Below are positions 24,751-60,113 of a stretch of DNA of 64,000 bases, piece after piece. Under the pieces are notes generated by a model. The model searched no databases and was not told the DNA's origin. It worked only from the letters and a program-made list of their open reading frames with translations. The position numbers were made by a program, and so were the translations under genes. The stretch is from positions 313,906,001 through 313,970,000 of the forward strand of contig OZ024741.1 in the NCBI GenBank assembly GCA_964016885.1, given 5' to 3'. Every line of letters starts with the position of its first letter. Position 1 is the stretch's first letter. This DNA comes from Eledone cirrhosa (taxonomy: Eukaryota).

Positions 24751-25927
24751 TCTATTATTAGGTACAGTGCGGGAATTCTGAAATGGAATGTTGCTGAACA
24801 AAAAGAAATGGATAGGAAGACTAGGAAGCTATTGACTATCTACAACATGTTCCACAAGAGGAGTGATGTCGATATACTCTACTTAAGGAGATCTGAAGGT
24901 GGAAGATGTCTTCTCAGCATAGAGGACTGTGTTCAGAGGGAGTAAAACAACCTACACAAAGACGTGACTGACAGTAGGGAGCCAATGCTCAGTATTGAAC
25001 TGAAAGAGAAGACGATAGACCAGGGGATGTCCAAGGAGGAAATAACAACAAGGAGGAAGAGCAACCTTCATGAACAATCCCTTCATAGTACCTTCTTTGG
25101 GAAAACTGAATTTAGAGATCCACAGACATGGAACTGGTTGAAAAGAGGAGACCTTAAAAGGGCTACAAAAGGAATGCTAATGGTTGCGCAAGGGCAGGCC
25201 CTCAAAAGTAAGTGGGTAAAACACCATATTTACAAGGAGGAGGCTAGACCACTGTGTAGGATCTGTGGAGAGAGAGAGGAGACTGTGGCTCACATTGTAT
25301 CCGAGTGTAAAAACCTAGCCCAGACTCACTATAAAGGCTGGAGACATGATGTGATGAGCAGGGTGATCCACTGGCACCTATGCAAAGTAAACAATTTACC
25401 ACATTCTGAGAAGTTGTATAAGCATAAGCCAGAGTCGGTGATAGAAAACGATCAGGTGAAGGTGCTATGGGATTTTAGGATTCAGACGGACAAGAAAATG
25501 GAACACAAGAGGCCTGACCTGGTGGTTTTGGACAAGGAAAAAAGATCGTGCCTGATTGTGGATGTGGCCTGCCCATTTAACACGAGAGTGCAAGAGAAGG
25601 AGAGGGGGAAGATTAACCGATACCAGGACTTAAAGTGGGAGGTAAAAAGGATTTGGAACTGCCATGAAGTCAGAGTCGTCCCGATTGCCATAGGCGCACA
25701 AGGTACTATCTCAAAGAGTTTCAAAGGATGGTTATAGAAAATTAGTCCAGCCCGCTTTTTGAAACACTTCAAAAGGCATGCTTGCTGGGAACAGCAAGAA
25801 CCCTCCGATACGTCCTGAATATCTGAGGCTACAGGTAGTGGCTTGATATTCATTTCAACAAACTTTCCAGTTAAATAACATAAATGACAGAGACTCAAGG
25901 AATAATAATAATAATAATAATAATAAT
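24748..25927 (+). mobile_element. 5'-truncated R4/Dong-like RLE retrotransposon with (AAT)n tail
   Basis: CRICGEREETVAHIVSEC, RPDLVVLD...IVDVACP; 3' UTR, then (AAT)n at 25901-25927. Confidence 0.93.
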
Positions 25928-25929
25928 GA

Positions 25930-28900
25930 TTTCTTTATTGGCCACAAGTGCTTACATCAAGAAAAAACATTACAGACGGCACAAGACGGTACAGAACGGA
26001 ATGATGTGGGTTTTGTTCATGTAAAGATTTTTATTATTTATATAAGAAAAGAAAAAGAAAAAGACATAGAAACATATATATATATATAAACAATAAAAAT
26101 GAAAATTGAAACAATGAAAAATTCCCCAATAGGGGGAAAAACCTCCGGGGGTTAGTCGTGGCGAAAACCACACACAAGACCACGGCCACCCTCAGCACCA
26201 GGGCAAGCGCCCTCTCAAAATGTTTCCATTTCTCAAACTACAGGCCTATATTCAGAGCGGTCCTGTTCACTCGGACAATTCTCGCTACATTCACCCACCT
26301 TTCCACAAACTTGCTAGAAGGCAGCACTTGCCTCTCCACCCTGATTTACCTCTTCAAGTGAAACTTGAAAAGTTAATTAGGGATTCGTCGGAGAGGAAAG
26401 TGTCTGTCTTTAACCCTTTCAACCTTGTCCACCACACAATTTCTTTCGCAGATGAAAACCGCCTGGCGAGACCATCTGCATAATGGACTCAGTCGATAAG
26501 CGGATCAGTCCTACACGCGACAACAACTGTTCGACGTAGCTCCACAAGTCAGCAATGCTCGGGCACTGAATGAGTGCGTGCACCACGGTTTCGTCTCTCT
26601 GCGCGCATCTCGGACAGGCTCGGCTGACGGCACTTCCGAGCCTGTATAGCTTATCTCGAACCGGCAACGCTCCCCGGTAGCACTGCCAGGCCAGGGATTT
26701 TTGGAAGTTATCCATAGGCCCTGGGCTGAAATTTCTTCGGAAGGGAGCACGCAGCTGATCCTCTTCGACGCCCAGGATCTCTCGGAGAACATCGTCGCTC
26801 TTCCCCTCCACTAGTCCTCTATAGAACGCCGAGGTGGATGTTCCACCGATACTGGTGCCCAGCTGCCAGAGACATTCCAGTTTCCAAGCGCTATCCCTGG
26901 GTCTTTTCCTGACCCAGGACTGCAGCTCCGTCAAGGAGACAAGCTGTTGGAAAACGTGCCTCGCGAACGGCGAGCACACTTGTTCACCGTCAAGGAAGCA
27001 CCAGAGATGTCGCAGCCTCAACGCATGTTTGCGCATCATCAGCCATGGCATGCCCAGTCCTCCACGCAACGGGTTTTGACAGCAAATGGATCCTCTGACC
27101 ATGAGAGCACGTCCCTTCTACAAAAAGCGGAAGAGGAGGCACTCCATTCTGTTGAGAGTTGGCCGGTGCAAGGGACGACGGTGAGGCGGTAGCAGATGAC
27201 GGATGCGATGTACGCATTCGCCATCTCCGCCAGGCCTTTCAGGGACAGCTTCCTCTCGCCTCATTTCTGGGTGAGGGAGGCCACCTTGTTCGTCACCTCG
27301 CTCCATCTTTTCTCCATCTGGATGTCCGGTCTGAACCAGACCCAGAGCAATTTAACCGGTCCGTCGATCCAACGACGCACGACACTATCGGACGGCATGG
27401 ACTTGCCTCTCCAGGTGCCGAGCTTCAAGCCCACCGAATTTCCCTGGTTTATCTTTGATCCTGTCACTGCTTCGTATTCTATGAGAGCGGTGCCGAGCAT
27501 TTGGACGCGTCTGGTACTCGACACCACCACGGTGACGTCGTCGGCGCAAGCCTACTCGGATTTCCCTCTTCATAGTTCGCGTGCAACGCCCATCATCGCC
27601 CCCAGTTTGTGCAGTAACGGCTCGAGAGTCAATACGTACAAGAGGAACGAGAGGGGACAACACTGGCGGACGGAGCGTATGATTTTGAACGGCTGCGACA
27701 GGTGACCGTTCACCCTCACAACTGAGCAGATGTCGATGTACATCTTAGCGATCTAACTCCTGAAAACGGGCCCAATACCGGCTGTCGCGAGGACCGCCGT
27801 CAAGTACCAATGGTCGACCCTATCGAATGCTTTGGATTTATCGAAGTTGTTCAGGGCCCCACCCCTGCCAGGTTCCTTAACCACCCTCTATATAATGTAT
27901 CGCATGAGGTGGAGGTTGTCGTGTATGGATCTGTCCGGAATGGCGCATATCTGCGCTTCTCTCACCAGACCCTTGACGACAAGCGCCAACCTCGTTGCTA
28001 ATACTTTGGCCAAAATCTTGAACTCTGCGTTTAGCAGGGTTATGGGGATGAAGTTATCGATAGCATACCCCTTGTTCGTGTCTTTTCTCAGCAGCGCCAC
28101 CTCTCCCCGGTTCACAAAACTGGGAATGCTCCCGTTCTGCTGCCAGTTGCAGTAGACGTCTGCCAAGATGTCACCGAACAAGTCTTTCATAAATGCATAA
28201 AGCTCGTAGGGCAGACCATCCAAACCTGGCTATTTACCCATCGTGCAGTTAGCCATCTCTTCCCGCATTTCACCGGCTGTTATTGGCTTTTCGCAACACT
28301 GTGCTGCGGTTGTCGAGAACCGAGGCAGTCCGTCAAGGTATACACTGAAATCCATACCCCGATCCGGCCCGCCGCTGTTGCAGAACAGTTCAGCAAAGTG
28401 CTGCTGAAAAGCTTCACACATCTGCTCGGGCAACACGCGCCCGTTTTGGTCAGATAAAGACCGAATTGTGGCTTTGTTGTCACGTCGCGCCTCCGCTACC
28501 CGGGCCCATTGGGCGGCTTTTGTCCCCTCCTGTTTCAGAGCACGCGCTCTAGCTCTGACAACGCAGCCTTCGTGTTTTGCGTTGAAGAATTTGTCGAGTT
28601 CCAATCTCGGCGCAAGCACGTCGGTTGCGATGCCTGTTCTAAACGCCTCTTCTAGCTTTCTGACTAGCTCTCCCTCTATTCTATTTTCCTCTGTCACTAG
28701 TCCTTTGCTAAACCTAATTCACTCTACTTAAATTTCCCTTTTCAGGGCGAACCGCCACCTGTTGTTGACGACCGCTCCCGTCAACGCCCGCTTAACTAAT
28801 ACGCTAATCCAGTCACTGTAGGTTTTGCGAGCCGGGAAGGACGCGTTCAGCTTCCAGTAACCGGGTCCTTGTCTATGAAGTCTGTCTATGTCGAGCTCAC

Positions 28901-30540
28901 AGACCACAAATGTGTGGTCTGTGTAGTCGACTATTTTAAATTGTGGACAACTTATACTAGCCTTATCTAGTTCTCTGCAGAATACCCTATCGAGATACGA
29001 TCGGATGACCCGATGCGGTTTGTCTATGTCCACATTGGCACATTCGGGTGATCCAGTCAATACATGTCAGACTGTTCAAAACGTCTGAGCAGGATAGTGA
29101 GGCTCTTGAACCCTCCTCCCCTATCCACTAGCTCCACACAATCCCAGTGTGCATCCAAGATACCGTTCCAGTCGCCCACTAACACTAAAGAGCTGGACGT
29201 TGCAAGAAAGGTCTCAAGACGTCTGAAGAAATATGGAATGCGTGCGTGCACCACGGTTTCGTCGCTCTGCGCGCATTTTGGAAAGGCTCGGCTGGCGGCA
29301 TTGACGTGCCTGTAGAGCTTATCTCGAAGCGGCAACACTCTCCGGTAGCACTGCCAGTCCAGGGATTTCTGAAAGTTATCCATAGGTCCTGGGCCGAAAG
29401 TTTGTAATGTTCTATTTTAATTTCAATAATGCTTATACTTTTCGGGAGAGTTCTTGGTGTTGGTGGGGTGTAGTAATTTTTGTCCGTAATGTCTGTGTGC
29501 TGCTTTATATGTTCTAAGAGTTCTTTATTTGCCAATTCTATGGTACTGTAATGATTTTGTGGCTGTTTGGTTTTGTTGATGTCTGTTTGTTACTGCTGTT
29601 GGGTATGTTTATCTTGCTGTTTTTGCGATGTTGATGTTTGTGGTGATGCCGATGATGGTGGTGTGGTGGTTGTTGGTTGTGATGGTGGTGGCGTTGCTGC
29701 GAGTCGCCTTGCAGACTTTACCCCTCTTTGTTTGCCTTCCCTTTTGGGGGGTGAAGCTAAGGGTTTTTTCTTGTTTCTTTTTTGTTGCCGATCGTTTGCC
29801 CCTTCACTAACCCGCCTGAGACTCAATGTCGGATTCCATGGGTTCTGGGAGGGGTATATGCTCCACGGCTGTTGGTGGTGGTAGTGGAGCCCTCTCCGGC
29901 GATTTTGTTGGTGCAGCTACTGCAAATATAGGTACTGGTGTTGCGGCCACTGCTGCTGCTGTTTTAGTTGCCTGTGACCTTGGTACGGCTGCCACGGGCG
30001 TTGCCCTCCTACTCACCGTGGAAGGGTCTTCTGCGTTTGTTGCCTGCCCTGATCTTGGTAGCAGTGGACCAGGAATTGGAAGGAGGGGTGTGGTTTCTTT
30101 ATCGCTGTCTTCTGTGGGCAAAAGGCCTTCAGGTGAGACTTTGACCCACAGAAATAACATTTTGGCCGTCTTCCTTCCACGCTTATAGGGAGTTGAACGC
30201 CGAGGTGGATATTCCACCGATACTAGTCCCCAGCTGGTAGCAGGCTGTGAGCGCTTGAGACATTCCAGCTTTCAAGTGCTATCCCTCGGTCTTTTCCTGA
30301 TCCAGGACTTCAGCTCCGTTAATGAGGCGAGCTGGGGAAAAACACGTCTGACAAACGGTGACCACACTTATTCACCGTCAAGGAAGCAACAGATGTGTCG
30401 CAGCCTCAGCACGTGTTTGCGCATCATCAGCCACGGCAGGCCCAGCCCTCCACGCAACGGGTGTTAACAACAAATGGATCTTCTGACCAGTGGAACACGT
30501 CCCCTCTATAACAAGTGGAAGAGAATGCACTCCATTCTCA
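25930..30540 (-). mobile_element. Tx1-like element: degraded ORF2 (to ~29237) followed by scrambled ORF2/ORF1 fragments
   Basis: RT motifs (PITLLNAEFKILAK, AYADD), C-terminal CPRC..H..C, APE remnants (LVGDWN, YLDRVF, TDH). The 3' end AATAAA abuts (ATT)n. Confidence 0.9.
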
Positions 30541-31950: not shown

Positions 31951-31964
31951 AGTATGTGTATAAT

Positions 31965-32143
31965 TGTTTCTACTTTTGGCACAAGGCCAGCAATTACCCA
32001 GTACATTACTGGTACTTTATTTTATCGACCTCGTAAGGATGAAAGGCAAAGTCAACCTCGGCGGGATTTGAACTCAGATCGTAAAGGGAAGTAACTATGC
32101 CGGAAAGCATGTCCGACCCTCTACCGATACTGCCAATTCACCG
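31965..32143 (-). mobile_element. Near full-length SINE with 10-bp TSD
   Basis: A/B boxes present; TSD tgtgtataat at 31955-31964 and 32144-32153. Confidence 0.88.
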
Positions 32144-33260: not shown

Positions 33261-33369
33261 AACTCTAACAATAGAAATCATTCATTATCTATATCACATG
33301 TAAGTAGCAAACAATTCTGCAAACAATAGAAAAGGATTAGTTATATACAAAGAGACCATCCTATCAGCA

Positions 33370-35240: not shown

Positions 35241-35256
35241 CCATATCAATGATAAT

Positions 35257-36794
35257 GCATGTCGGATTCCGTGGCGTCTGGGAGGGCTATGAGCTCCACT
35301 GCTGTTGGTGGTGGTAGTGGAGCCCGCTCCGGCGATTTTGCCACCGGTGTAGCTACTGCGGTGTAGCTGTCCGTGGCCTTGGTATGGGTGCCACGGACGT
35401 TGCCCTCCTACTCACCATGGAAGGGTCTTCTACCTCTGTTTCCTGTCCTGCGCTTGGTAGCAGTGGATCAGCCGTCGGAAGGAAGGGGGCCCTCTCCATG
35501 GCTGGCTTCTGCGGGCAGAATGCCCTGAGGTCACCCTTCTGACCATAATGATTGCACTTTGGGCGCCTTCCTTCCACGCTTATAGGGAGTTGGAGTCCTT
35601 CTTCGAGGTCTATTATGTTTGGGATGGCCTCGATGCGCTCCTTGTCAGTCTGTATTAGCATTTGCATGCCTATTCCTGAACAGTTCTCTCTTCCCATTAT
35701 CTGTATTAGCAGTATGGTGGTCTTCTCCTCGATTCTAGCCAGTACAGACGCGGCCAGCCAAAGTATGGGCATGTCTGGCGGGACCTGGGTCACTTTGACC
35801 ATCACAATTTTCTGCCCGCAGTAGGAGGGCCCCAGGACTATCTCCTTACTCTTTAGGGTTTCCAAAGTGTGAGACTTCGCCTCTTTGGGGGCGAGAAGTA
35901 CGTCTAATGTGGCATACCTTTTGCCTCGGGTGATGTGGGTTTTGCACGTCCAGGCGCACCCCAAAGCCTTTTGGATTTGAGCCTCCGTGGCTCGCTCCAC
36001 CCGATGTGACATTTTGCTTATGGTGCAGTAAGTCACCGTGCGCGGCTGCTGGTCTTTGAAGAAATTGGGTGAATATTTCAGGGAAACTCGATTGTCGTTT
36101 CTTGACACCATGGCTACTGCTACTGCCATCTCCTTCTCCGTGAAAAGCACTGTCTCTATATTTCGGGCAACACCTTCTACTGGTCTTGTCGTTGGTGCTG
36201 TTGCTGTTTTTACTGCTACAAACAGCGTTGTTGGTGTTGTTGCTGTTATCACTGTTGTAGTTGGTTTTGTTTTTCGTGCTACCATTGTTGTTGTTTTCGG
36301 TGCAATTTGTATTGTTGCTGTTGGTGTTGTTGTTTATTTTCTTGTTAGTGGTGTTAATATCGTTGTTGCATTTATTGTCATTTTTTCCGTTGTCTTTATT
36401 TTGGTTGACGCTGTTATTATTGTAGTTGGTGTGGTAAATTTTTCAAAATCAGTGTTGTTGTCTTCGTTCACGTTGTATGTGGTGGTGTTTGTTGTATGAA
36501 TTTCACTAACCCTCTTCTCAACTTTTACGCCGTTGTCACACGACAGTAGATATATTGCTGGGAGGGGTGGCTCAGCAATGTTTTTTTTATTTTTTATTTA
36601 TTTTCAAAAGTAAAATGTTCAAATATTATTCAAATATTTGGGCAAAAGGCCCAAATATTATACTTTCCCCTTCACAAGGCAAAGTCCTAGGGCTTATATT
36701 CCTTACACAACAAGAAATATTTAACAACAAATAACTATAACAGGTACATAATACGACTTACTGGGAGCGAGCAAAAAGGACGTCCGAACAGATC
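35257..36794 (-). mobile_element. Tx1-like 5' portion (5' UTR + ORF1); 5' end abuts (ATT)n
   Basis: ORF 35353-36285 is homologous to the other ORF1 copies; (AAT)n at 36795-36815. Confidence 0.88.
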
Positions 36795-36815
36795 AATAAT
36801 AATAATAATAATAAT

Positions 36816-36906
36816 TGTTTCTACTTTTGGCACAAGGCCAGCAATTACCCGGTGCCTTACTGGTACTTTATTTTATCGACCCCGTAGGGATGAAAGGCGA
36901 AGTTAA
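36816..36906 (-). mobile_element. SINE 3' half ending in (ATT)n
   Basis: Same family as 39988-40171. Confidence 0.85.
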
Positions 36907-36922
36907 CTATAAGGACAATAAT

Positions 36923-38580: not shown

Positions 38581-38624
<44 letters not shown>

Positions 38625-45227: not shown

Positions 45228-45268
<41 letters not shown>

Positions 45269-46393
45269 TTATTTATTGGCCACAAGGCCTGACGTCAAGA
45301 AAAATATTACTGACGGCACAGGACGGTACAGGACGGTACGATGTGGGTTTTGTGCATGTAAATATTTTTATTATTTATATAAGAAAACAAAAAAAAAGGA
45401 CATAGAAACATATATATATATAAACAATAAAAATGCAAATTGAAACAATGAAAAATTCCCCAATAGAAAGGAAACCTCCGAGGGTTACTCGTAACGAAAA
45501 CCATACAAAAGACTACGGCCACCCTGACCACCAGCGCAAGCGCCCTCTCTCAATGTTTCCATTTCTCAAACTACAGACTATATTCAGAGTGGTTGCGTTC
45601 ACTTGGACCATTCTCGCTACATTCACCCACCTTTCAACAAACTTGCTAGAAAGCAGCATTTGCCTCACCACCATGATTTTCCTCTTCAAGTGAAACTTGA
45701 AAAAGTTAATTAGGGATTCGCCGAAGAGGAAATTGTCTGTCTTTAACTATTTTAACCTTTTTAACTGGTCCGTTGTACCACGAGACATCTTTCGGCATCC
45801 TTTCTGTTCGTCCGGTAACACGTTGTTTGTGGGGAGGTGATGGTAGATTTCCTCAGACATAATGATTGTCAACAGTTTCCACATTACGGACATATATGCG
45901 ATAGGTCTATAGTTACCTCAACTTCTATTTCTACTTCAACTTCAACACCATCACTACAGTACTACGATCACATCACCTCCACCACTGCCTCATTATCGCT
46001 ACCGCCACTATTCTCTCCCACTACCTCATGCTAAGTACTACTAGCACAGCACCACCACCATCACCATTGCCTCATTATCACTATCGCCGCTATTCTCTCC
46101 CACTACCTCCTGCTAAGATATGCATCGTAGTGTCCCCACTAAAAGAGGAAGGCTTCAAAAGATATGAATAGAATGATTTGATGACCCGGTCAAAAAATCA
46201 AAAAAACAAAAATCAAAATCAAAGCAGCACAGCAACAACGAAAAACGTAAAGAAAAGAAAAATGAAAAGAAAAACAAACAGTCAGACAGAGAAGGGAAGG
46301 GAAAAACTAAGTCAGACATTCAAACATTACTTTACAATGAAACTTATGCTTATTCTTTTCTTTTTTTGCCTATTTGTTTGTTTATTTATATTC

Positions 46394-49300
46394 GTCTACA
46401 GCGTGATAGCGCCACACAAAATTCACCGGGAGTGTAGAAATCACAGGTGGTGATGAAATCACCGGTGGTTATGTAACCATACATTCACCAATCTTCGATA
46501 AGAGTGTTTAAATGTCTAACCTATACAGTTCGAATAACGGTGAGGTGGAGACTGGAACGTCATGTGACAGACTCTCACCCAGCAGGTGCTCCCTGGCTCA
46601 GCAGCAGGGACCTGGCTGTCAACCAAATACTTGTTTCTACTTTAGGCACAAGGCCAGCAATTACCCAGTGCATTACTGGTACTTTATGTTATCGACCCCG
46701 TAAGGATGAAAGGCAAAGTAAACCTCGGCGGGATTTGAACTCAGATCGTAAAGGGACGTAACTATGCTTGAAAGCATGGCGTCCGACCCTCTACCGATAC
46801 TGCCAATCCACCGCCCTGTCAACCAAATACTGCTGGTGTCGGAGGAAGAAGAAGAAGGAAAAGGACCAGAACCAACTGGACGAAAGTGTTGAATAGAACA
46901 GTCATGCAATGTTACCTGAAGAGTAACCCCAAGGAAAAGGCTATAGGAAACGGATGCATAACATCTGGAACGAGATTGGTCTATTTAAATTAGATGAACA
47001 AAAATTGGCCGGGCAGGCTCGGGTAATAAGAACTAATGGGTGGATAAGCGAGCTGGAACTGGAGGAACTGAGCAGAGAGATTAGGTTGGAAATGGAGAGT
47101 GGAGTATGCCAGGCAAACGAGCCAGTGGGAAATGAAGGTGAAGAGGTTGAGAAAACGGAGGAACCATCCGAAGCAGGCAATGATCTGAATGCTGAAATAA
47201 ATAATACCTGGAACAGAGATACGGCCATTGAGGAGATGAACGGTGACGGGCTAGGACAAGATTTGGTTGATATCCTAAACTTAGTGGTAGATGAATTGAA
47301 CAATGATAGTGGGAAACCTATGAACCTAAGATTTGTAGACAGGAAAAAGTTAAAAGAAACAACAGCTAAGTAAACAAAGTCATCCCATACCTTGAGGCGA
47401 GGAGCCTTCACCAGTGCAACAATATCCTCAAAGCAACAGCAAATACGGTGAGGAAATTACTTGGTATAAAAGCGAGCGGAAACAACAAACAAGAAAGATC
47501 AGAGCCTTGGGGGAAGAGACGACTGAATGGTCAAATCAGGGAAATGAGAAATGACATTGGAAAGCTTGAGTCCCTATTGAATGGGACATTAAAAAAATAT
47601 AGATACTAAAAATAGACGGGAAATAAAGTACAAAACTAGGAGGAAAAAGCTAAATATTATCATAGAGGAACTGAAGCAACGCATTGTAGTAAAGAGTGCA
47701 AAAATTGGGCGATCTGAGAGCAGAGTCAGTCAATATAGACAGAACCGCATGTTTGACAACAACCAGAAGATGCTGTTTGGACAGTTTGAAAGGAAAGAAA
47801 GAGGCAACGATTGATCCCTTAGGCGGAACAAACTAAGACGTTCTGGAGAGGAATATGGGAGCAGGATGTTAAACATAATGACTAGGCGGTGTGGATTGAG
47901 ACGATACAAAAGGAGATTAGTGAACAGGCACACCAACAAACTGATTTGAGTGTCACAGTTGAAACTCTTAAGCGGGAGGCCAAAAAACTAACCAACTGGA
48001 AATCACCAGGCCCAGATGGTGTGCAGGGTTATTGGATAAAAAATATAACATCCCTCCACCCGAAACTGACAACCATGTTCAATGACTGCTTGATGTCAGG
48101 TGAGGTACCAGGGTAGTTGACAAAAGGTACCACAGATCTGGTAATGAAAGACCGAATCAAGGGTAATGATGTTACCAACTATAGACGTATCACATGTCTG
48201 TCCGTAATGTGGAAACTGTTGACAAGCATTGTCTGAGGAAATCTACCACCAATTCCACACAAACAACTTGTTACCGGACGAACAGAAAGGATGCCGAAAG
48301 AAGTCCCGTGGTACAAAGGACCAGTTACTTATTGATAAGATGGTAATGAGGAATTGCAAGAGGAGACACACTGGTCTTGTCATGGGATGGATAGACTACA
48401 AAAAGGCATTTGACATGGTGCCCAATTCTTGGATCACCCAAAGCCTAGAGCTCTTCAAGATGGCAGATAACATCAGACAGTTGTTGGGCAAAAGTATGAA
48501 GTCCTGGAAAACAGAGTTAACATCAGCTGGAGAATCCTTGGGAGGCGTGAAGATCAAGAGAGGTGTCTTCCAGGGAGATAGTTTTTCCCCTCTGTTGTTT
48601 GTCCTTGCCCTGATGCCTCTGAACATTATACTGCGAAAAGTGAGAGCAGGATACAAGTTGGGAAAGGGAGAGCTTACCATCAATCACCTCCTCTTCACGG
48701 ACGATATTAAGCTCTTCGGGAAGAGTGAGAAGGAGTTGGATGTGCTTGTTGACACTGTCCCTATTTTCAGCAATGATATATGTATGCAATTTGGTATTAC
48801 TAAGTGTGGAGTCCTTGTGATGAAGAGGATAAATTGAGCAGAATAAACGGAATCCCGGTACCAACAGGTGAGATGATAAAGAAAATTGACACTGAAGAAG
48901 GATACAAGTATTTGGGTGTTCTGGAGGCTGATAACATCAAAAACAAAAAAAAATGAAGGAATTGATAAGATCTGAATACATTCGGAGAGTAGGAAAGGTA
49001 TTTAAGTCACATCTGAACAGTAGGAATGCCATAAGTGCAGTAAATTCCCGAGCTGTGTTTATTATTATGTACAGTGCGGGAATTCTGAGATGGAATGTTG
49101 CTAAACAAAAAAGAAATGGATAGGACGACTAGGAAGCTATTGACTATCTACAACATGTTCCACAAGAGGAGTGATGTCGATAGACTCTACTTAAGGAGAT
49201 CTGAGCATGGAAGAGGTCTTATCAGCATAGATGACTGTGTTCAGATGGAGAAAAACAACCTACACAAATACGTGACTGATAGTAAGGAACCAATGCTCAG

Positions 49301-50193
49301 AACTGTACTGAAGGAGAGGACAATAGACGAGGGGATGTCCAAGGAGGAAAAAACAACGAGGAGAAAGAGCAGCGTTCAGGAAAAATCCCTTCATAGTACT
49401 TTCTTTGAGAAAACTGAATTCAGAGATCCACAGACATGGAACTGGTTGAAAAGAGGAGACCTTAAAAAGTCTACATATTGAATGTTAATGAATGCGCAAG
49501 AGCAGGCCCTCAAAACGAAGTGGTTGAAACACCATATTTACAAGGAGAAGGCTAGCCCACTGTGCAGGTTCTGTGGAGAGAGAGACAGGGAGACTGTGGC
49601 TCACATTGTATCCGAGTGTTAACACCTAGCCCAGACTCACTATAAGGGCTGGAGACATGATGTGATGGGCAGGGTGGTCCTATGCAAAGTAACCAATTTA
49701 CCACATTCTGAGAAGTGGTATGAGCATAATCCAGAGTCGGTGATAGAAAACGATCAGGTGAAGGTGCTGTGGGATTTTAGGATACAGACGGACAATAAAC
49801 TGGAACACAATAGACCTGACCTGGTGGTTTTGGACAAAGAAAAAAGATCGTGCCTGATTGTGGATGTGGCCTGCCCACCGAGAGTGCAAGAGAAGGAGAG
49901 GGAGAAAATTAACCGCTACCAGGACTTAAATTGGGAGGAAAAAAGGATTTGGAACTGCCATGAAGTCAAAGGCGCACTAGGTACTATCTCAAAAAGTTTC
50001 CAGGGATGGTTAAAGAAAATTGGCCCAGCCGCGCATTTTGGAACGCTTCAAAAGGCATGCTTGCTGGGAACAGCCGATACGTCCTGAACATCTGAGGCTG
50101 CAGGTAGTGGCTTGATATTCATTTCCACAAACTTTCCAGTTAACTAACATCAATGACTGAGACTCAAAGAATAATAATAATAATAATAATAAT
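46394..50193 (+). mobile_element. Duplicate of the degenerate R4/Dong-like element, including its SINE (46632-46815)
   Basis: Same ORF fragments at +6644. Confidence 0.92.
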
Positions 50194-50437
50194 GTTTTCT
50201 TTATTAACCACAAGGGTTTACATAAAGTAGACATTAAGGACAGTACAGGACAATACAGGACGGTACAAATGGGCATTTCTGCGTGTAAAAAAAACAGAGG
50301 TTGAAATAAAATAACAAAGAAAAATTCCCCAATAGGGGGGAGGCTTCCGAGGGACATTTGTGGAGAAAGCCCATTAAAAGACCACAGTGGCCCTGACCAC
50401 CAGGGCAAGTGCCCTCTCCCAGTTTTCCACCTTTAAT

Positions 50438-53400
50438 TTACAGACACATACTCAGAGAAGGCCCATTCATTCGGGCCATACTTGCTTCTCTCACCCATCT
50501 TTCAACAAAATGCTGGGAAGAGACCACTTCACTCTCTACCCTGATTTTCCTTTTCAAATGAAATTTGAAAAAGTTAATTAGGGCATCACCGAAGTGGTAA
50601 GTGCTCGTCTTCAGCCCTTTCAAACGTGTCCACCATACTATCTCTTTCGCCATGGCCACCAGACAGATAAAAACTGCCTGCCCTTCCCGGCTAAAGGAAG
50701 GGGGCGTGGCAATCCTCACGATGGACTCAGCTGATAGCTGGATCCGTCCTACACGTGACAGCAGGTGTTCGACATAAACCCACAAGTCAGCAATGCTCGG
50801 ACACTGGACGAGTGCATGCAGGACGGTTTCGTCGCCCTGCGCGCATCTCGGACATGCCCGGCTGACGGCACCTCCATGCGTGTAGAGTTTATCCCGAACT
50901 GGCAAAGCTCCTCGGTAGCACTGCCAGGCCAGGGATTTCTGGAAGTTGTCCATAGGCCCCGGCCCGAAAGTCCTTCCGAAGAGATTGGCTAGTTGATTTT
51001 CGTTGACGCCTAGAGTTTCTCCAAGTACGTCGTCGCTCTTCCCCTCCACTAATCCCCTATAGAACGCCAAGGTGGAGTTTCCACCGATCACATTGCCCGA
51101 TTGGACGAGGGCTGTGAGCGCCTGAAGACATTCCAGTCTCCAAGCGCTCCCTCTCGGTCTTCGCTTGACCCAGGAGTGCAGCTCCGTCAAGGAGACGAGT
51201 TGGGAAAAAACGTGTCTATCAAACGGCGACCACACCTGATCACCGTCGAGGAAGAGGTGGAGATGTCGTAGCCTGAGCGCGTGTCTGCGCATCATCAGCC
51301 ACGGCATGCCCAGCCCTCCACGTAGCGGGTGTTGACAGCAGATGGACCGCCTGACCATCGGAGCGCGTCCCTTCCACAAGAAGCGAAAGAGCAGACGCTC
51401 CAGCGCAGTCAGGCGGGGCTTAGGACAAGGTACGACGGTCAGGCGGTAGTAGATGACGGATGCGATGTACGCATTCGCCACCTCCGCTCGACCGTTCAGG
51501 GATAGCTTCCTCTCGGTCCATTTTTGGGTTAGAGAAGCCACCCTGCTCGTCACCTCGTCCCAGTTTTTGTCCGTCTGGAGGTCTGGACCGAACCAGACCC
51601 CTAGCAATTTAACCGGTCCGTCCGTCCAGCGCCCGACGACGCTGTTGGACGGCATGGACCTGCCTCTCCAGGTGCCGAGCTGCAGGCCCACTGACCTTTC
51701 CTGGTTGATCATTGCTCCTGTCACCGCCTCGTATTCTCTTAGTGTAGTGCCGATCGCCTCAATTGTTTGGCGTTCGACACCACTACGGTGACATCGTCGG
51801 CATATGCTGACACGGATCTTCCGCATCCTAGTTCGCGCGGGACCCCCCTCAACGTCTCCAGTTTGTGCAGTAATGGCTCGAGAGTCAATACGTACAATAG
51901 GGACGAGAGGGGACATCCTTGGCGGACCGAGCGCATGATGTTGAACGGTTCCGAAAGGTGACCGTTCACTCTCACTACAGAGCAGATGTCGCTGTGCATG
52001 GCAGCGATCCAGCCTCTGAAGACGGGCCCAAAGCCAGCCGCCCTCATGACTGCCGCTAGGTAACGATGGTCGACCCTATCGAAGGCTTTCGACTGATCTA
52101 AATTGATCAAAGACCCACCCGTGCCAGGTTCCCTAGCTACCCTCTCTACGATGTATCGCATGACTTGGAGGTTGTCGTGGATGGATCTGTCGGGAATGGC
52201 GCATGTCTGTGCCTCTCCCACCAGACCACCAACGACAAGCGCCAACCTCTTTGCTAGCACCTTGGCCAAAATCTTGAACTCTGTGTTTAGCAGAGTTATG
52301 GGCCTAAAATTATCTATGTTATCCCCCTTGTTCGGATCCTTTCTCAGCAGCGCCACCGCTCCTCGGCTCACAGAGCTGGGAATTCTCCCGTTCTGTTGCC
52401 AGTTGCAGTAGACGTTCGCCAAGAGGCCTCCGAACAATTTTGGCATTTGTACGTAAAGTTCATAGGGCAGACCATCCAAACCAGGCGATTTACCCCTTGT
52501 GCAACTAGTCATTGCATCCCGTACTTCAGCGGTTGTTATCGGCTTTTCGCAACACTCCGCCTCAGTGGCCGAAAGCCGCGGCAGTCCGTCCTCGATCCGG
52601 CCCGCCACTGCCCCCGAACAGTTGAGCGAAGTGTCGCTGAAAAGCTTCACACATTTGCCCGGGATCGAGTAGCATGCGCCCGTCGTGGTCCACCAAAGAC
52701 TGGATCGTGGCTTTGTTGCCACGACGCGCCTCCGCCACTCGGGCCCATTGAACGGCTTTCGTCCCCTCGTATCTGAGAGCACGCACCCTAGCTCTGACAA
52801 CGCAGCCTTCGTGCTTTGCATTGAAGAATTGGTCAAGGGCCAATTTCGCCGCAAGTACGTCGGTCGCGATGCCTTTGCTAAGCGCCTCATCTAATTTTCT
52901 AACTAATTCTCCCTCTGCTCTATTTTTCTCTATTGCTAAAGTCTTACTAAACCTAATGGACTCTATTCTAATTGCTCTTTTCAGAGCAAACCACCACTTG
53001 TTGTTGACGATGGCCCCGGTCAACGCCCGCTTAACTAGTTCGCTAATCCGGTCTCTGTAGGCCTTGCGCGCTGGTAAGGACGCGTTTAGCTTCCAGTAGC
53101 CGGGTCCTTGTCTATGAAGCCTATCTAAGTCAAGCACACAGATCACGAATTTGTGGTCCGTGTAGCTGACTATCTTGAATTGTGGACAGCCTATGCTAGA
53201 CCTATCTATTTCCCTACAAAATACTCTATCTAGATATGATCTGGATGACCCTATGCGATTTGTCCAAGTCCACATTGGTACATTCGGGAAATCCATTCGG
53301 TACCTGTCAGACAGTTCAAAACATCTGAGCAGGTTGGTGAGACTCTTGCACCCTCCTTCCTATCCACTAATCCCACACAATCACAACGTGCATCTAACAT

Positions 53401-53832
53401 CCCGTTCCAGTCGCCCACTAACACTAAAGAGCGGGACGTTCCAAGAAAGGTCTCCAGACGCCGGAAAAAATCAGGCCGCCCTGCTCCTGTCGGAGCATAG
53501 ACGGCCACTAACCTGAAAGCTTGCCCGTCTCCGCTGGTCACGTCCAGCACCACCAACTTACCTTCTGGGTCCAGGAAGATGGCCCGTATGGCAAGATCCA
53601 AACCTCTCCGAAAAAGCACAGCAACTCCTCCCCCCGATCCCGGACGGCTGGGAGATGCGTACACATCGTAGCCGCCGAAGATCGGTGCGAAAGCCTGTGC
53701 TTCGGAGATTCTGGTCTCGCTGATGGCCACTACATCTATGTTTAGTGACCTGAGGTCGTTGAGCAGGTGGCCCTGCTTCCATGACGACCCCAAGCCACGA
53801 GCATTTATGCTGCCTCTTCTGAGTGAGGTCAT
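50438..53832 (-). pseudogene. Tx1 ORF2: APE endonuclease + RT + C-terminal zinc finger, ~3 frameshifts
   Basis: GSINARGL, ISETR, VGDWN, YLDRVF, TDHK; SPGLDGL, RPITLLN, DQSKAFD, RQGCPLS, YADD; CPRC...H...C. Confidence 0.93.
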
Positions 53833-53866
53833 GTTGAAAAGGAGTGGAAAAGATGGGAAAGACCAC

Positions 53867-55852
53867 TTACCTTACTTCTCGTAGGGGAAGGACGGTTTTT
53901 CCATCCTTTTCACTGCTTGTGGCCTCCTCAGGAAGTATGTCCTTATAAATCCTCCTGGAGAGTGCTTGTCGGAAGTCTCCGATGTCTTTGGGGAATTTTT
54001 GTTTTAGTGTCATGTACGTTTTCTGTGTGATGCGAGTGATTTGTATGTGTGGAGGTGGTGTGAATTTTGTGGTTGTTGTGTAGTCTTTTTCTGTGATGCT
54101 GGTGTTGTGTTGGATGTAGTGTAATAATTGGTTGTTGTTCAAATTTAATGCTGTGTAGTGTGTATCGTTTTGGTTGTTTTGTTTTGTTTGCGTTTGTTGT
54201 GGGTTTGTTTCTGTTTCGCATTTTGGTGACTTTTGTGGTGTAGGTGATGGTGGTGTTGGGGTTAATGATGGTGATGGTGTTGGTGTTTGGGTTGATGGGG
54301 TTGGTGATGCTGGTGTGGATGGTGGCATATCTGTCCTAACTTTTTTGTTTCTTAATTTATTTGTTTCCCTCTGTATTTTGTTTTTGGAGGGGGAAGGAAG
54401 AGAATTTTTTCTTTTTTGGTTTCTTTTTTTTTTCCGGATATCGTTTCGCACTCCTCGTCGTCACAATCTGTCTCCAGTTGTGATAGGCCGGGGAGTGGAA
54501 AATCCTCCACAGCCTTTAGTTTTGGTTGTGGCGTGGGGGATGGTGTAGGCGCTGGTGCTAGTTCTGAAGCGTTGGGTGGTGGTGGTGTTGGTTTTGCTGG
54601 TGGTGGTGTTGGTGTTGGTTTTGCTACTGTTGCTGGGGTTGTTGCTGTTATAGTTGCTTCTGTTGTTGCTGCTACAGTTGTTGCTGCCATCTCTGCTACT
54701 GGTGGTGTTGATGGTTGTGTCACTGGGGTGGGTAGGAGAGGTGGCCTCAACCTTTTAGCCTGAGGGCAGAAAGCCCTTAGGTGGGTTTCTTCACCACAAC
54801 AACACACCTAGGTCTTCTGCCCTCGACAATTACCGTGAGGTGGCTGCCGTCAGTGAGGTCTATTACCTCTGGGATCTCCTCAATGCTTTTTTGGTCCGCT
54901 TGGATCAGGAGCTCCATCCCAGATCCGGACCAGTTTTCCTGTCTTTCTTTTGCTATTGCTATTATTTTCGTGTTGGCTTCGATGCCGGCGAGGACGGCCG
55001 CTATTAGCAAGGGAATTTCGATGGCCGGTGGAACGTGGGTCACCCTGATCTTTACGAGTCTCTGGCCACAATAGCTTGGGACGAGTGTGAAGTCGTCACA
55101 TTTTAATGGGGCCATGGAGTGTTTTCTAGCCTCCTCTGGTGTTTCAAAGAACACGTCCACGGTTCCATACTTTGCCCACGTCTGATGTGGGTTTTTCTTG
55201 CCCACACATGTCCCAAAGCTTTTTGGATTTGGGACTCGGATGCCCGTTCCACTCGGCGCGATTTTACATTTATTGTTCTATACGACACGGTGCATAGGCG
55301 CCGATGCTCCATTTTATTAGGTGGGGGGAGGGTGAGGCTGACCCTGTACCCATCTTTCTTTACCATTTGTTTGGCATTTTCTAAATCTTCCTGAGTTACC
55401 GTAAATGTTTCGAATTGTTTTGCTACTCTGGCGAAACTGAGGGGGGGTTTTATAATGTCATTGTTGTTGTTGTTGCTATCGTTAATATTAATTTTAGTTT
55501 CAGTTGTGGTTGTGGTGACGTCAGTCGTCTTTGGTAGGGAAGAGTCCATTTTGCTTGATTTCATTTCGACATCACGAGTTAATTTATTTTTTTCTTCTTT
55601 TGTTTCTGTTGTCGCGGTGGTGGTGGTGGTGGTGGTTGTCGCGGTGGTGGTGGTGGTGGAGGCTTTAACACCTGCAGTCATTGGTAATGGCGGGAAATGA
55701 ATGTCTGCCTGAGACAAATTTAAAATATTGCTACTGCTTATATTTTTTTTTGTGTTGGCAAACGTAGTAACATTTACAATGATGGTGTCGGTGTGAGGTG
55801 TTAATTTGTGAGGAAGGCTTTCAGCTGCTTGTTGCAGAGGTGAATTAGCCAT
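53867..55852 (-). pseudogene. Tx1 ORF1 (nucleic-acid binding, CCHC knuckle, Pro/Thr-rich linker), frameshifted
   Basis: ATG at 55852 (MANSP...); fragments 55103-55852, 54777-55205, 54352-54807, 53867-54451; RPRC..CG...HLRAFC. Confidence 0.85.
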
Positions 55853-56060
55853 TTTTTTTTCAAAGAAATTTTTGATAATAATAAAAGTTAAAATTTTGGG
55901 CACAAGGCCCCAATCTTTTTGGGCGTCCTTTTCGGAAAACAATGTATGTGTGCTTATAAACAGTTAACAATAAAATTTTCCATAAATGGCAGTTTTTAAC
56001 AAACGGAAATAACAAACCTTTGCGGAGCTCACGATGATACGATTTACTACGTAGGTCGCC

Positions 56061-56110
<50 letters not shown>

Positions 56111-56112
<2 letters not shown>

Positions 56113-57138
56113 TCAGCATAGAGGACTGTGTTCAGATGGAGAAAAACAACCTATACAAATACGTGACCTATAGTAAGGAGCCAATGCTCAGAACTGTACT
56201 GAAGGAGGGGACAGTAGGCCAGGGGATGTCCAAGGAGGAAATAACATCAAGGAGGAAGAGCAGCCTTAAGGGAAAATCCCTTCATAGTACCTTCTTTGAG
56301 AAAACTGAATTTAGAGATCCACAGACATGGAACTGGTTGAGAAGAGGAGACCTCAAAAAGGCTACAGAAGGAATGCTAATGGCTGCGCAGGAGCAGGCCC
56401 TCAAAACGAAGTGGTTGAAGCACCATATCTACAAGGAGGAGGCTAGCCCACTGTGCAGGATCTGTGGAGAGAGAGAGGAGACTGTGGCTCACATTGTGTC
56501 CGAGTGTAAACACCTAGCCCAGACCCACTATAAGGGCTGGAGACACGATGTGATGGGCAGGGTGATCCACTGGCACCTGTGCAAAGTAAACAATTTACCA
56601 CATTCTGAGAAATGGTATGAGCATAGGCCAGAGGCGGTGATGGAGAACAATCAGGTGAAGGTGCTGTGGGATTTTAGGATACAGACGGACAAAAAACTGG
56701 AACACAATAGACCTGACCTGGTGGTTGTGGACAAAGAAAAAAGATCGCGCCTGATTGTGGATGTGGCCTGCCCGTTCGACACGAGAGTGCAAGAGAAGGA
56801 GAGGGAGAAAATTAACCGATACCAGGACCTAAAGTGGGAGGTGAAAAGGATTTGGAACTGCCATGAAGTCAAAGTGATCCCGATTGTCATAGGCGCACTG
56901 GGGACTATCTCCAAAAGTTTCCAGGGATGGTTATAGAAAATCGGCCCCTTCACGCTTTTTGGAACGCTTCAAAAGGCATGCTTGCTTGGAACAGCAAGAA
57001 CCCTCCGATACGTCCTGAATATCTGAGGCTGCAGGTAGTGGCTTGATATTCAATCCAACGGACTTTCCAGTTAACCAACATCAATGACTGAGATTCAAGG
57101 AATAACAATAACAATAATAATAATAATAATAATAATAA
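56111..57138 (+). mobile_element. Young 5'-truncated R4/Dong-like copy between two (AAT)n tracts
   Basis: Nearly identical to 59092-60080. Confidence 0.95.
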
Positions 57139-60113
57139 GGACAAGATTCGGTTGACATCCTAAATTTAGTGGTAGATGAATTGAACAATGATAGTGGGAG
57201 ACCTATGAACCTAAGATTTGTAGACAGGACAAAGTTAAAAGAAACAACAGCTAAGGTAAACAAAGTCATCCCATACCTTGAGGCGAGGAGCCTTCACCAG
57301 TGCAACAATATCCTCAAAGCAACAGCAAATACGGTGTATAAAAGCGAGAGGAAACAACAGACAAGAAAGAGCAGAGCCGTGGTGGAAGAAACGACTGAGT
57401 AGTCAAATCGGTGAAATGAGAAATGACATAGGAAAGCTTGAGTCACTACTGAATGGGACACTAAAAAACAAAGGCACTAAAAATAGACTGGAAATAAAGT
57501 ACAAAACTAGGAGGAAAAAGCTAAATATTATCATAGAGGAACTGAAGCAACGCATTGTAGCAAAGAGTGCAAAAATCAGGCGATACGAGAACAGAGTCAG
57601 TCAGTATAAACAGAACCGCATGTTCGACAACAACCAGAAGATGCTGTTTGGACAGCTTGAGGGGAAAGAAAGAGGCAACGACTTGATCCCTGGGGCGGAG
57701 CAAACTAAAACATTCTGGAAAGGAATATGGGAGCAGGATGTTAGACATAATGTCCAGGCAGGGTGGATTGAGACAGTACAGAGGGAGATCGGTGAGCAGG
57801 CACACCAACAAACTGATTTGAGTATCACAGTTGAAACTCTTAAGGGGCAGGCCAAAAAACTAACCAACTGGAAATCACCAGGCCCAGATGGTGTGCAGGG
57901 GTATTGGATTAAAAATTTAACATCCCTCCACCCGAAGCTGACGGCCATGTTCAATGACTGCTTGGTGTCGGGTGAGGTGCCAGAGTGGTTGACAAAAGGT
58001 ACCACAGTTCTGATAATGAAAGACCGAATCAAGGGTAATGATGTTACCAACTATAGACCTATCACATGTCTGTCCGTAATGTGGAAACTGTTGACGAGCA
58101 TTGTGTCTGAGGAAATCTACCATCACCTCCACACAAACAACTTGTTACCGGACGAACAGAAAGGATGCCGAAAGAAGTCACGTGGTACAAAGGACCAGTT
58201 ACTTATTGATAAGATGGTAATGGGGAATTGCAGGAGGAGACACACTGATCTTGCCATGGGATGGATAGACTACAGAAAGGCATTTGACATGGTGCCTCAT
58301 TTTTGGATCACCAAAAGCCTGGAGATCTTCAGGGTGGCAGATAACATCAGACAGTTGCTGGGCAGGAGTATGGGGTCCTGGGAGACAGAGTTGACATCAA
58401 CTGGAGTATCCTTGGGAAGCGTGAAGATCAAGAGAGGTATCTTCCAGGGAGATAGCCTGTCCCCTCTGTTGTTTGTCCTTGCCCTGATGCCCTTGACCAT
58501 TATGCTGCGAAAAGTGAGAGCAGGATACAAGTTGGGAAAGGGAGAGCTTACCATCAATCACCTCCTCTTCATGGACGATCTTAAGCTCTTCGGGAAAAGT
58601 GAGAAAGAGTTGGATGTGCTTGTTGACACTGTCCGTATTTTCAGCAGTGATATATGTATGCAGTTTGGTATTAGTAAATGTGGAGTCATTGTGATGAGGA
58701 GGGGTAGGTTGAGCAGAAGTAACGGGATCCAGATACCAACAGGTGAGATGATAAAGGAAATTGACTCTGAGGAAGGATACAAGTATTTGGGCGTTCTGGA
58801 GGCTGATGGCATAAAGAACAAAAAAATGAAGGGATTGTTAAGAACTGAATACATTCGGAGAGTAGGGAGCGTATTGAAGTCACATCTGAACAGCAGAAAT
58901 GCCATAAGCGCAGTAAATTCCCGAGCTGTGTCTATTATTAGGTACAGTGCGGGAATTCTGAGATGGAATGTTGCTGAACAAAAAGAAATGGATAGGAAGA
59001 CTAGGAAGCTATTGACTATCTCCAACATGTTCCACAAGAGGAGTGATGTCGATAGACTCTACCTAAGGAGATCTGAGGGTGGAAGAGGTCTTATCAGCAT
59101 AGAGGACTGTGTTCAGATGGAGAAAAACAACCTATACAAATACGTGACCTATAGTAAGGAGCCAATGCTCAGAACTGTACTGAAGGAGGGGACAGTAGGC
59201 CAGGGGATGTCCAAGGAGGAAATAACATCAAGGAGGAAGAGCAGCCTTAAGGGAAAATCCCTTCATAGTACCTTCTTTGAGAAAACTGAATTTAGAGATC
59301 CACAGACATGGAACTGGTTGAGAAGAGGAGACCTCAAAAAGGCTACAGAAGGAATGCTAATGGCTGCGCAGGAGCAGGCCCTCAAAACGAAGTGGTTGAA
59401 GCACCATATCTACAAGGAGGAGGCTAGCCCACTGTGCAGGATCTGTGGAGAGAGAGAGGAGACTGTGGCTCACATTGTGTCCGAGTGTAAACACCTAGCC
59501 CAGACCCACTATAAGGGCTGGAGACACGATGTGATGGGCAGGGTGATCCACTGGCACCTGTGCAAAGTAAACAATTTACCACATTCTGAGAAATGGTATG
59601 AGCATAGGCCAGAGGCGGTGATGGAGAACAATCAGGTGAAGGTGCTGTGGGATTTTAGGATACAGACGGACAAAAAACTGGAACACAATAGACCTGACCT
59701 GGTGGTTGTGGACAAAGAAAAAAGATCGTGTCTGATTGTGGATGTGGCCTGCCCTTTCGACACGAGAGTGCAAGAGAAGGAGAGGGAGAAAATTAACCGA
59801 TACAAGGACTTAAAGTGGGAGGTGAAAAGGATTTGGAACTGCCATGAAGTCAAAGTGATCCCGATTGTCATAGGCGCACTGGGGACTATCTCCAAAAGTT
59901 TCCAGGGATGGTTAAAGAAAATCGGCCCCTTCACGCTTTTTGGAACGCTTCAAAAGGCATGCTTGCTTGGAACAGCAAGAACCCTCCGATACGTCCTGAA
60001 TATCTGAGGCTGCAGGTAGTGGCTTGATATTCATTCCAACAGACTTTCCAGTTAACCAACATCAATGACTGAGATTCAAGGAATAACAACAATAATAATA
60101 ATAATAATAATAA
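57139..60113 (+). mobile_element. Young 5'-truncated R4/Dong-like RLE retrotransposon, (AAC/AAT)n tail
   Basis: Starts immediately after an (AAT)n tract; long intact ORF; 3' UTR. Confidence 0.96.
57278..60007 (+). CDS. Retrotransposon polyprotein, N-terminally truncated: RT + CCHC + restriction-like endonuclease
   Basis: 909 aa open frame: WKSPGPDG, YRPITCL, WIDYRKAFD, IFQGDSLSP, FMDD, CRICG..H...C, RPD...D...K. The first ~20 aa are out of the true frame. Confidence 0.93.
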   Translation: MRRGAFTSATISSKQQQIRCIKARGNNRQERAEPWWKKRLSSQIGEMRNDIGKLESLLNGTLKNKGTKNRLEIKYKTRRKKLNIIIEELKQRIVAKSAKIRRYENRVSQYKQNRMFDNNQKMLFGQLEGKERGNDLIPGAEQTKTFWKGIWEQDVRHNVQAGWIETVQREIGEQAHQQTDLSITVETLKGQAKKLTNWKSPGPDGVQGYWIKNLTSLHPKLTAMFNDCLVSGEVPEWLTKGTTVLIMKDRIKGNDVTNYRPITCLSVMWKLLTSIVSEEIYHHLHTNNLLPDEQKGCRKKSRGTKDQLLIDKMVMGNCRRRHTDLAMGWIDYRKAFDMVPHFWITKSLEIFRVADNIRQLLGRSMGSWETELTSTGVSLGSVKIKRGIFQGDSLSPLLFVLALMPLTIMLRKVRAGYKLGKGELTINHLLFMDDLKLFGKSEKELDVLVDTVRIFSSDICMQFGISKCGVIVMRRGRLSRSNGIQIPTGEMIKEIDSEEGYKYLGVLEADGIKNKKMKGLLRTEYIRRVGSVLKSHLNSRNAISAVNSRAVSIIRYSAGILRWNVAEQKEMDRKTRKLLTISNMFHKRSDVDRLYLRRSEGGRGLISIEDCVQMEKNNLYKYVTYSKEPMLRTVLKEGTVGQGMSKEEITSRRKSSLKGKSLHSTFFEKTEFRDPQTWNWLRRGDLKKATEGMLMAAQEQALKTKWLKHHIYKEEASPLCRICGEREETVAHIVSECKHLAQTHYKGWRHDVMGRVIHWHLCKVNNLPHSEKWYEHRPEAVMENNQVKVLWDFRIQTDKKLEHNRPDLVVVDKEKRSCLIVDVACPFDTRVQEKEREKINRYKDLKWEVKRIWNCHEVKVIPIVIGALGTISKSFQGWLKKIGPFTLFGTLQKACLLGTARTLRYVLNI

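Follow-up and report, generated by a model that had tools for sequence, protein, structure and literature searches.

How do retrotransposons of two unrelated clades come to sit repeatedly at one microsatellite, pointing in opposite directions? The question is raised by a stretch of 64,000 nucleotides from Eledone cirrhosa (contig OZ024741.1, positions 313,906,001 to 313,970,000 of the forward strand), here called the window, which belongs to a 416 Mb contig in a genome of 3.0 Gb. From position 24748 onward, the window is nearly all retrotransposon without long terminal repeats (non-LTR). The plus-strand elements are R4/Dong-like, with a restriction-like endonuclease (RLE), and the minus-strand elements are Tx1-like, with an apurinic/apyrimidinic endonuclease (APE); a short interspersed element (SINE) is also present. 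The two main types, Dong and Tx1 for short, meet at tracts of (AAT)n. The answer proposed here, which we regard as likely, is that Dong and Tx1 use opposite strands of one repeat and leave repeat on both sides, such that insertions add targets and polarised arrays grow.

Element ends at the (AAT)n tracts of the window

The window holds nine (AAT)n tracts of 21-52 bp, at 25901, 36795, 38582, 43526, 45229, 50170, 56061, 57113 and 60091, the last two within tails that contain AAC and begin at 57101 and 60082. The original prediction was that such tracts abut element ends, and an end is indeed found on either side of all nine. Its assignment of strands also agrees with what is seen, both here and in the genome-wide samples described below: the RLE elements lie on the strand that reads AAT, and the Tx1-like and SINE ends lie on the strand that reads ATT. 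Random 29-mers contain such a tract in only 0.3% of 20,000 draws per orientation, so contact between tracts and ends is above chance. A 6.6 kb tandem duplication generated two of the nine, those at 43526 and 45229, which leaves seven independent tracts.

The plus-strand elements carry a single open reading frame (ORF) with a reverse transcriptase (RT), then a CCHC knuckle and then a PD..D..K motif. In family Dong A, a 5'-truncated copy at 57139..60081 (plus strand) has an open frame of 915 aa, with RVT_1 at residues 261-512, the knuckle at 726 and the endonuclease motif PD..D..K..RY at 812. Among solved proteins, those of R2 come closest (E 1.6e-31), and the 120 closest proteins listed, together with five clusters, gave no informative family name. 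The minus-strand elements encode an ORF1 with a CCHC knuckle and an ORF2 with APE, RT and zf-RVT. ORF2 is frameshifted in the full-length, 5867 bp copy of subfamily Tx1A in the window (50194..56060, minus strand) and intact in loci L197, L199, L201 and L204; intact frames span 1152-1204 aa and contain Exo_endo_phos, RVT_1 and zf-RVT domains. For the endonuclease, the best solved matches are L1 endonucleases. ORF1 matches no Pfam family above cut-off; that of locus L204 has C-X2-C-X4-H-X4-C at residue 370, and a CCHC knuckle in ORF1 is typical of the Tx1 clade. The closest 38 relatives of the Tx1-like protein, at 37-75%, bear no family name. Both clade names follow from features of this kind and are best read as probable assignments.

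Tail-to-tail joints of Dong and Tx1 occur twice. A 5'-truncated 3' part of Dong A (24748..25900, plus) and a 5'-truncated copy of subfamily Tx1B (25928..29232, minus; 78% to Tx1A) meet at their 3' ends across (AAT)9 at 25901..25927, and Dong A at 45762..50169 (plus; RT domain at 48223-48837) meets the full-length Tx1A across (AAT)8 at 50170..50193. The Dong parts of the two pairs are 87% alike and the Tx1 parts 78%, and therefore the pairs arose independently, as had been claimed. Rightward, (AAT)17 at 56061..56112 joins the 5' end of Tx1A head-to-head to that of a truncated Dong A (56113..57100, plus). An AAC/AAT tail (57101..57138) separates this element from the head-to-tail Dong A copy with the 915 aa frame, and a second such tail (60082..60113) lies between the 3' end of that copy and a second Dong-like family, Dong B, which begins at 60114 with a full-length 5' end, occupies 60114..64000 (plus) and extends past the window to end in (AAT)7 at L191:2047. 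The next 19 kb (loci L191 and L192) continue as Dong-(AAT)-Tx1(rev)-(AAT)-Dong-(AAT)-Dong. The array had been placed at 46394-60113; its first RLE copy in fact starts near 45762-45911, and its right side runs beyond the window.

Tx1 5' ends meet other elements further left. The 5' end and ORF1 region of a Tx1 of the variant H type (35258..36794, minus; rearranged further left) reaches (AAT)7 at 36795..36815, on the other side of which is the 3' end of a 5'-truncated SINE (36816..36907, minus). Similarly, (AAT)14 at 38582..38624 joins the truncated 5' end of a Tx1A copy (36923..38581, minus), whose 3' end has only (ATT)2, to the 3' end of a Tx1B fragment (38625..39115, minus; copied at 45269-45759).

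Growth of the array by insertion, as originally proposed, is only part of its history, given that 38582..51872 is a plain tandem duplication of 6.64 kb, the units of which (38582-45228 and 45229-51872) differ by 3 substitutions outside the crossover zone. Through it, Dong A at 45762-50169 is repeated at 39118..43525 (plus), the tract at 50170 is repeated as (AAT)8 at 43526..43549, and the tract at 38582 is repeated as (AAT)13 at 45229..45268. The Tx1A copy at the duplication junction (43550..45228, minus) is a chimera: as far as 45154 its sequence is that of the copy at 50194, and from about 45122 onward it is that of the copy at 36923-38581, with the crossover in Tx1A homology at 45122-45154. 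The repeat would stem from Tx1 copies that crossed over unequally, or from an assembly error that takes the same form. At their 5' ends, both Dong copies also carry a stretch of internal Dong sequence in inverted orientation (45762-45914, with the body from 45911, and 39118-39270), a twin-priming-like shape that is unusual in RLE elements.

Orientation and junctions across the genome

Orientation was scored in a set of loci that covers 2.0 Mb and 480 tracts, mostly picked around elements and with some overlap possible. At these tracts, 187 Dong termini lie on the AAT strand and none on the other, 147 Tx1 termini lie on the ATT strand and none on the other, and SINE termini divide 35 to 1 in favor of the ATT strand. 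An even sample consisted of 100 evenly spaced 10 kb stretches (1 Mb), in which tracts with at least five units were scored; a family end adjoins 34 of these 59 tracts, and 43 of the 44 ends have the expected orientation. Pairs within 20 kb were also counted along the first 55.6 Mb of contig C1, for which 100 3' ends of Tx1 and 60 of Dong A were listed. Among these listed matches, Tx1-Dong pairs are opposite in 42 of 45 cases and same in 3, Tx1-Tx1 pairs are same in 38 and opposite in 1, and Dong-Dong pairs are same in 9 and opposite in 0, with 1-4 pairs per class in jittered controls. Given the strand counts and the pair orientations, polarised arrays are general, and orientation relative to the repeat is fixed rather than random, as the original prediction had expected. 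More than its three partners take part, however: Dong is represented by two or more families and Tx1 by several 5' variants, and other ATT-tailed repeats are present as well. Two orientation exceptions were seen, at L280 and L286: in one, a SINE has its 3' end on the AAT strand, and in the other, a Dong tail is joined to a truncated Tx1 of the same orientation. The 1 Mb even sample (L091-L190) contains 65 (ACT)n, 60 (ATC)n and 64 (AAT)n tracts.

The 3' motif of Dong A has 5480 exact matches in the genome. Junctions were scored in the first 30 copies along contig C1, ordered by position, of which 16 have a 5' junction within 1.5 kb; 15 of these 16 truncated 5' ends abut (AAT)n. All 25 full 5' ends of Dong B lie at (AAT)n. 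Beyond the tails of the 30 Dong A copies are a Tx1 3' end in nine cases, a SINE in two, another Dong in nine and unrecognised sequence in ten, and all 20 recognised neighbours stand in the expected orientation.

The Tx1 3' motif has about 7600 exact matches. Exact Tx1A 5' ends number 1687 genome-wide, and 1532 of these (91%) come directly after (ATT)4 in a single phase, with (AAT)3 upstream, at 0-3 bases between, in none of the 1687. This is the reverse of 5' ends that mostly lack (ATT)n, the outcome that had been named as fatal to the proposal. Among the best 30 of 40 scored matches to the Tx1A 5' end, which include the window copy, all follow (ATT)n in one phase. Ten sampled exceptions to the (ATT)4 rule have interrupted or short tracts, and nine of them still end in ATTATT/GG, where the slash marks the junction. 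The full-length 5' junction falls at ATT/G in 58 of 59 Tx1A, 12 of 12 Tx1G and 2 of 3 Tx1H copies. At the other end, (ATT)n follows the Tx1A 3' end in 28 of 30 copies, and a repeat tract is found at both sides of full-length Tx1A in 25 of 26, with medians of 10 and 15 units.

Some Tx1 5' ends abut (CTT)n directly or via only three ATT units (L077:767, L289, L291 and L329), and beside Tx1 elements, (CTT)n and (ATT)n are often combined in a compound tract. A further ATT-tailed repeat, distinct from Tx1, Dong and the SINE, supplies landing pads for Tx1A (L049, L338 and L339), and other recurring tract flanks are seen at L091, L102, L117 and L183. Copies of Tx1A with internal duplications or deletions occur at L118, L135 and L106. 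Tx1A and Tx1G have ORF2 in common at 94% but unrelated 5' regions, which suggests that 5' modules may have been exchanged.

In a sister Tx1 lineage, whose ORF2 is about 60% identical, all ten copies shown have tails of (TATC)n, and eight 5' junctions have TATC-like repeats; in a genome-wide test, for which a single old copy supplied the motif, (TATC)3 precedes 3 of 19 matches. This lineage is also seen in head-to-tail runs (L105, L108, L116, L138, L148, L154, L177 and L179). As much as 43% of the words sampled from the Tx1 locus L201 occur in sequencing runs from other organisms, and the Tx1 lineage is common to relatives, since contigs of two such runs cover the element.

The SINE ends as Tx1 does, with the last 25 or so nucleotides in common (CCTTGTG..AAA..AGAAAC) and a tail of ATT. 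Because the 3' end and the tail are shared, the SINE likely reports the activity of the Tx1 enzyme. Of 104 SINE copies with a 3' end, 51 have a target duplication of at least 9 bp, and 49 of these duplications are not pure repeat. Positions 1-5 are A, T, T, A and T in 43-44 of the 49 each, the median length is 13 bp, and the preceding base is a pyrimidine in 37 (C in 20, T in 17). Given that the duplications start with ATTAT, this short site suffices for the Tx1 machinery; a copy in the window at 31961..32143 (minus) is at such a site, with a 9 bp duplication and no tract. When full-length SINE ends do lie in tracts, none of seven is joined at ATT/G. The proposal that all three partners rely on (AAT)n is not borne out, as the SINE is mostly at short ATTAT sites and truncated Tx1 ends are mostly off-tract (see below). 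In a check for a tRNA-derived Pol III head, the SINE gave no ARAGORN or Rfam match; it may resemble octopus tRNA-derived SINEs.

Other features of the window lie mostly to the left. A GIY-YIG domain at 3921-5057, probably part of a Penelope-like element, is flanked by inverted (AC/AT) blocks at 2775-3190 and 5427-5711. An older Tx1-like copy, about 70% to Tx1A, occupies 7224-10119 (minus), and its 5' end may be marked by the (TC)n/(TATC)n stretch that lies at 10096-10196, some 800 bp upstream from the last aligned base. Two SINE copies at 31817-32143 are tail-to-tail and form an imperfect palindrome. Elsewhere, another repeat family has an (AAG)n tail (L116:2729, L155 and L293:2848); we presume that it is possibly RTE-like.

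A model of insertion and its rivals

The proposed use of opposite strands builds on the orientation, junctions, tails and clustering described above, and the nicks themselves are inferred from target-primed reverse transcription. Since that reaction nicks the strand complementary to the RNA first and since orientation is fixed, the two enzymes would nick opposite strands, in agreement with the original prediction, which likewise drew on sequence. The restriction-like enzyme of Dong would nick the ATT strand, where the (AAU)n tail can pair with the primer, and the APE of Tx1 would nick the AAT strand at about 5'-ATAAT/R, where the (AUU)n tail can pair. Dong would depend strictly on long tracts, and its truncated copies would do so too. 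The Tx1 machinery would require only about ATTAT, as read from the SINE duplications.

To this we would add, leaning toward it only slightly, an (AUU)n leader at the 5' end of full-length Tx1 RNA. Transcription would start within the upstream repeat, and the cDNA of the leader would then pair with target sequence. If the leader holds, it accounts for both the invariant ATT/G junction and the tracts at both Tx1 ends. This reading is suggested because ends of the full-length long interspersed element (LINE) are in phase, while truncated Tx1 ends mostly lack a tract and SINE ends in tracts are out of phase. Pads would be seeded by Tx1, the SINE and other ATT-tailed repeats and filled by Dong and Tx1, with further copies supplied by unequal crossover among neighbours. 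One site would become two because the (AAT)n and (ATT)n tails are the same duplex and repeat flanks nearly all full-length Tx1A.

Several observations weigh against the model. Truncated Tx1 copies were sampled as the first 30 Tx1 3' ends on contig C1; 16 have a break within 1.5 kb, three of which were dropped as internal deletions or continuations, and only four of the 13 scored 5' ends abut (ATT)3 or more. Other ends in this sample abut (CTT)n (two), (ACT)n (one), a same-orientation Dong tail (one) or little or nothing (five). SINE 5' ends touch ATT tracts in only 24 of 132 cases and AAT tracts in 3 of 132. In the window, no tract adjoins the Dong 5' ends at 24748 and 39118/45762 or the Tx1 5' ends at 29232 and 39115/45759, and a 183 bp SINE (46632..46814, minus; copy at 39988-40170) lies off-tract within the Dong ORF and has a target duplication of 15 bp. 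In the even sample, 25 of the 59 tracts touch none of the Tx1, Dong and SINE families. A search for empty sites, in which full-length Tx1A flanks were compared with all sampled loci, found only other element-element joints adjacent. No unique duplication was seen at the 3' ends of 12 more full-length copies (7 found), and in contigs from 4 public runs, compared with L201, none of the 15 joints displayed, out of more than 2600, skips the element. Of the earlier claim that insertion regenerates the target, what is seen is the tracts that flank full-length Tx1A.

The regular 5' ends could alternatively mean that Tx1 protein acting in cis is a true reader of long (ATT)n, with a precise top-strand nick at ATT/ATT and no RNA leader. 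This would fit the (ATT)4 at 91% of full-length 5' ends and the lack of unique-sequence duplication around full-length copies seen with both ends, and both nicks would fall at TpA steps. However, truncated copies made by the same protein are mostly off-tract (4 of 13 on), SINE ends in tracts are out of phase (0 of 7), and the full-length copy L331 lies between (ATT)3 and (ATT)2, such that we consider this explanation rather unlikely.

A further point against the model concerns Dong B, as 13 of its 25 5' ends come after a Dong A tail, whereas such a tail is present at only 6 of the 59 even-sample tracts. This excess is above random pad choice and is not accounted for by the model; template jumping, or a bias of insertion toward tracts that are long and pure, may play a part. 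R2 is able to make end-to-end template jumps. By the same route, head-to-tail runs could mostly arise in one reaction instead of by later insertion at a pad, with the RT, on completing one RNA, switching to a second RNA at its repeat-tailed 3' end. The Dong A copies just upstream of full-length Dong B are variably truncated and of many haplotypes, with AAG-type bases at the joint, as jumping would predict, and one putative jump is named in a passage of PMC3774820. Yet jumping cannot produce tail-to-tail joints, in which nine of the 30 Dong A 3' ends meet one of Tx1, nor can it produce head-to-head joints or 5'-end tracts with unique flanks, and it is improbable as the main source of the head-to-tail runs. 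At loci L241-L265, the Dong A tails ahead of Dong B are young, and the joint often holds additional AAG units. Derivation from one composite Dong A-Dong B master was considered and rejected: upstream Dong A falls into 8 haplotype classes, with distances of 1.4% within and 1.3% between groups.

That there is no targeting at all, with 3' tracts as tails and clusters as the outcome of tandem duplication and insertion tolerance in repeat-rich regions, is scarcely credible: the 6.6 kb duplication and three Tx1 ends at 395 bp spacing on contig C1 are of the expected kind, but the 5' junctions, base-exact phase and strict polarity go beyond tails or duplication, and the absence of reverse orientation among Tx1A 5' ends (0/1687) contradicts it.

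Returning to the use of one repeat from opposite strands, the data suggest, if the leader holds, that Tx1 mostly makes pads and Dong uses them. More tentatively, this may amount to a producer-consumer cycle, in which Tx1, with a nick preference of only 5-6 bp, writes (ATT)n at both of its own ends from its RNA and so converts AT-rich sites to long microsatellites, the strict Dong uses these from the other strand, more than half of (AAT)n tracts are made by retrotransposons, and the sister Tx1 has moved the cycle to (TATC)n.

Known systems and what the arrays mean

Each single ingredient of the arrangement has precedent. R1 and R2, an APE and an RLE element, share the 28S ribosomal DNA at separate sites, and TRAS1 and SART1 are both APE elements of the R1 clade, at telomeres. 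In Bombyx, according to passages of PMC7265360, TRAS1 and SART1 use endonucleases of their own to insert into (TTAGG)n in opposite directions. That pair is alike in having two LINEs, one repeat and opposite directions; here, in contrast, one RLE and one APE element, with RTs that are 25% identical, meet at interstitial (AAT)n supplied by their own tails.

Passages of PMC3812793 list the targets of Dong as TAA repeats, of Kibi as TC and of Koshi as TTC, and parts of the same paper and of PMC1635306 describe TAA-repeat insertion for Dong (R4 clade) and Rex6. Dong of Bombyx, Anopheles and Biomphalaria and Rex6, as portrayed in those parts, resemble the present elements in the single ORF with RT, CCHC and restriction-like endonuclease motif and in the TAA target; the present ones differ in their thousands of copies, at least two families and interleaving with an APE element. 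Bombyx Dong has a hepatitis delta virus (HDV)-like 5' ribozyme, as stated in a passage of PMC3774820, whereas no match for one at the Dong 5' end was found here by Rfam (60080-61500) or by a simple descriptor, both weak methods. An HDV-like ribozyme in Tx1 was also considered and set aside, with no Rfam match and with descriptor matches, taken as chance, in Tx1G only. In R2, part of PMC3774820 attributes uniform 5' junctions to upstream 28S target on the RNA and annealing of the cDNA; a ribozyme sets the cut there, whereas the leader here is putative.

For Tx1, the relevant section of PMC4494074 gives (TC)n, (TTC)n, (TTCC)n and (TTTC)n as targets of Kibi, Koshi and crocodilian families, and describes a partner SINEU that prefers the Tx1 target more weakly. 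These are likewise L1-group APE LINEs in microsatellites, with the pyrimidine-rich strand as sense. Unlike them, the present Tx1 has ATT as its unit, a target in common with an RLE element and a sister lineage on (TATC)n. In octopus, passages of PMC13282606 and PMC8967140 report Dong-R4 and L1-Tx1 as recently active or expanded, with targets unmentioned in those passages; general background is found in parts of PMC4640811, PMC3747384, PMC8869645 and PMC4758252. In the literature searched there is no report of an ATT- or AAT-targeting Tx1 or of a target shared by Tx1 and Dong, although Repbase, outside the search, may hold one. The ATT target, the pairing of APE and RLE elements on an interstitial repeat and the asymmetry of maker and user therefore appear to be undescribed in that literature. 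The novelty that was originally supposed appears to hold for the sharing between Tx1 and Dong, but the sharing of a repeat in opposite directions was known from TRAS and SART (PMC7265360, in the passages noted).

The arrays call for caution with AAT markers and assemblies in this group, as these sit inside long, near-identical arrays. The birth of microsatellites would be tied to retrotransposon tails, given the 34 of 59 tracts with a family end. The target repertoire of Tx1 gains ATT and probably TATC, and two close Tx1 lineages with different repeats provide a pair for studying the evolution of target choice. The junctions of full-length LINEs, truncated LINEs and SINEs made by one enzyme bear on how LINE 5' ends are joined. 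In short, this would be a natural, genome-scale case in which APE and RLE enzymes use one repeat from opposite strands.

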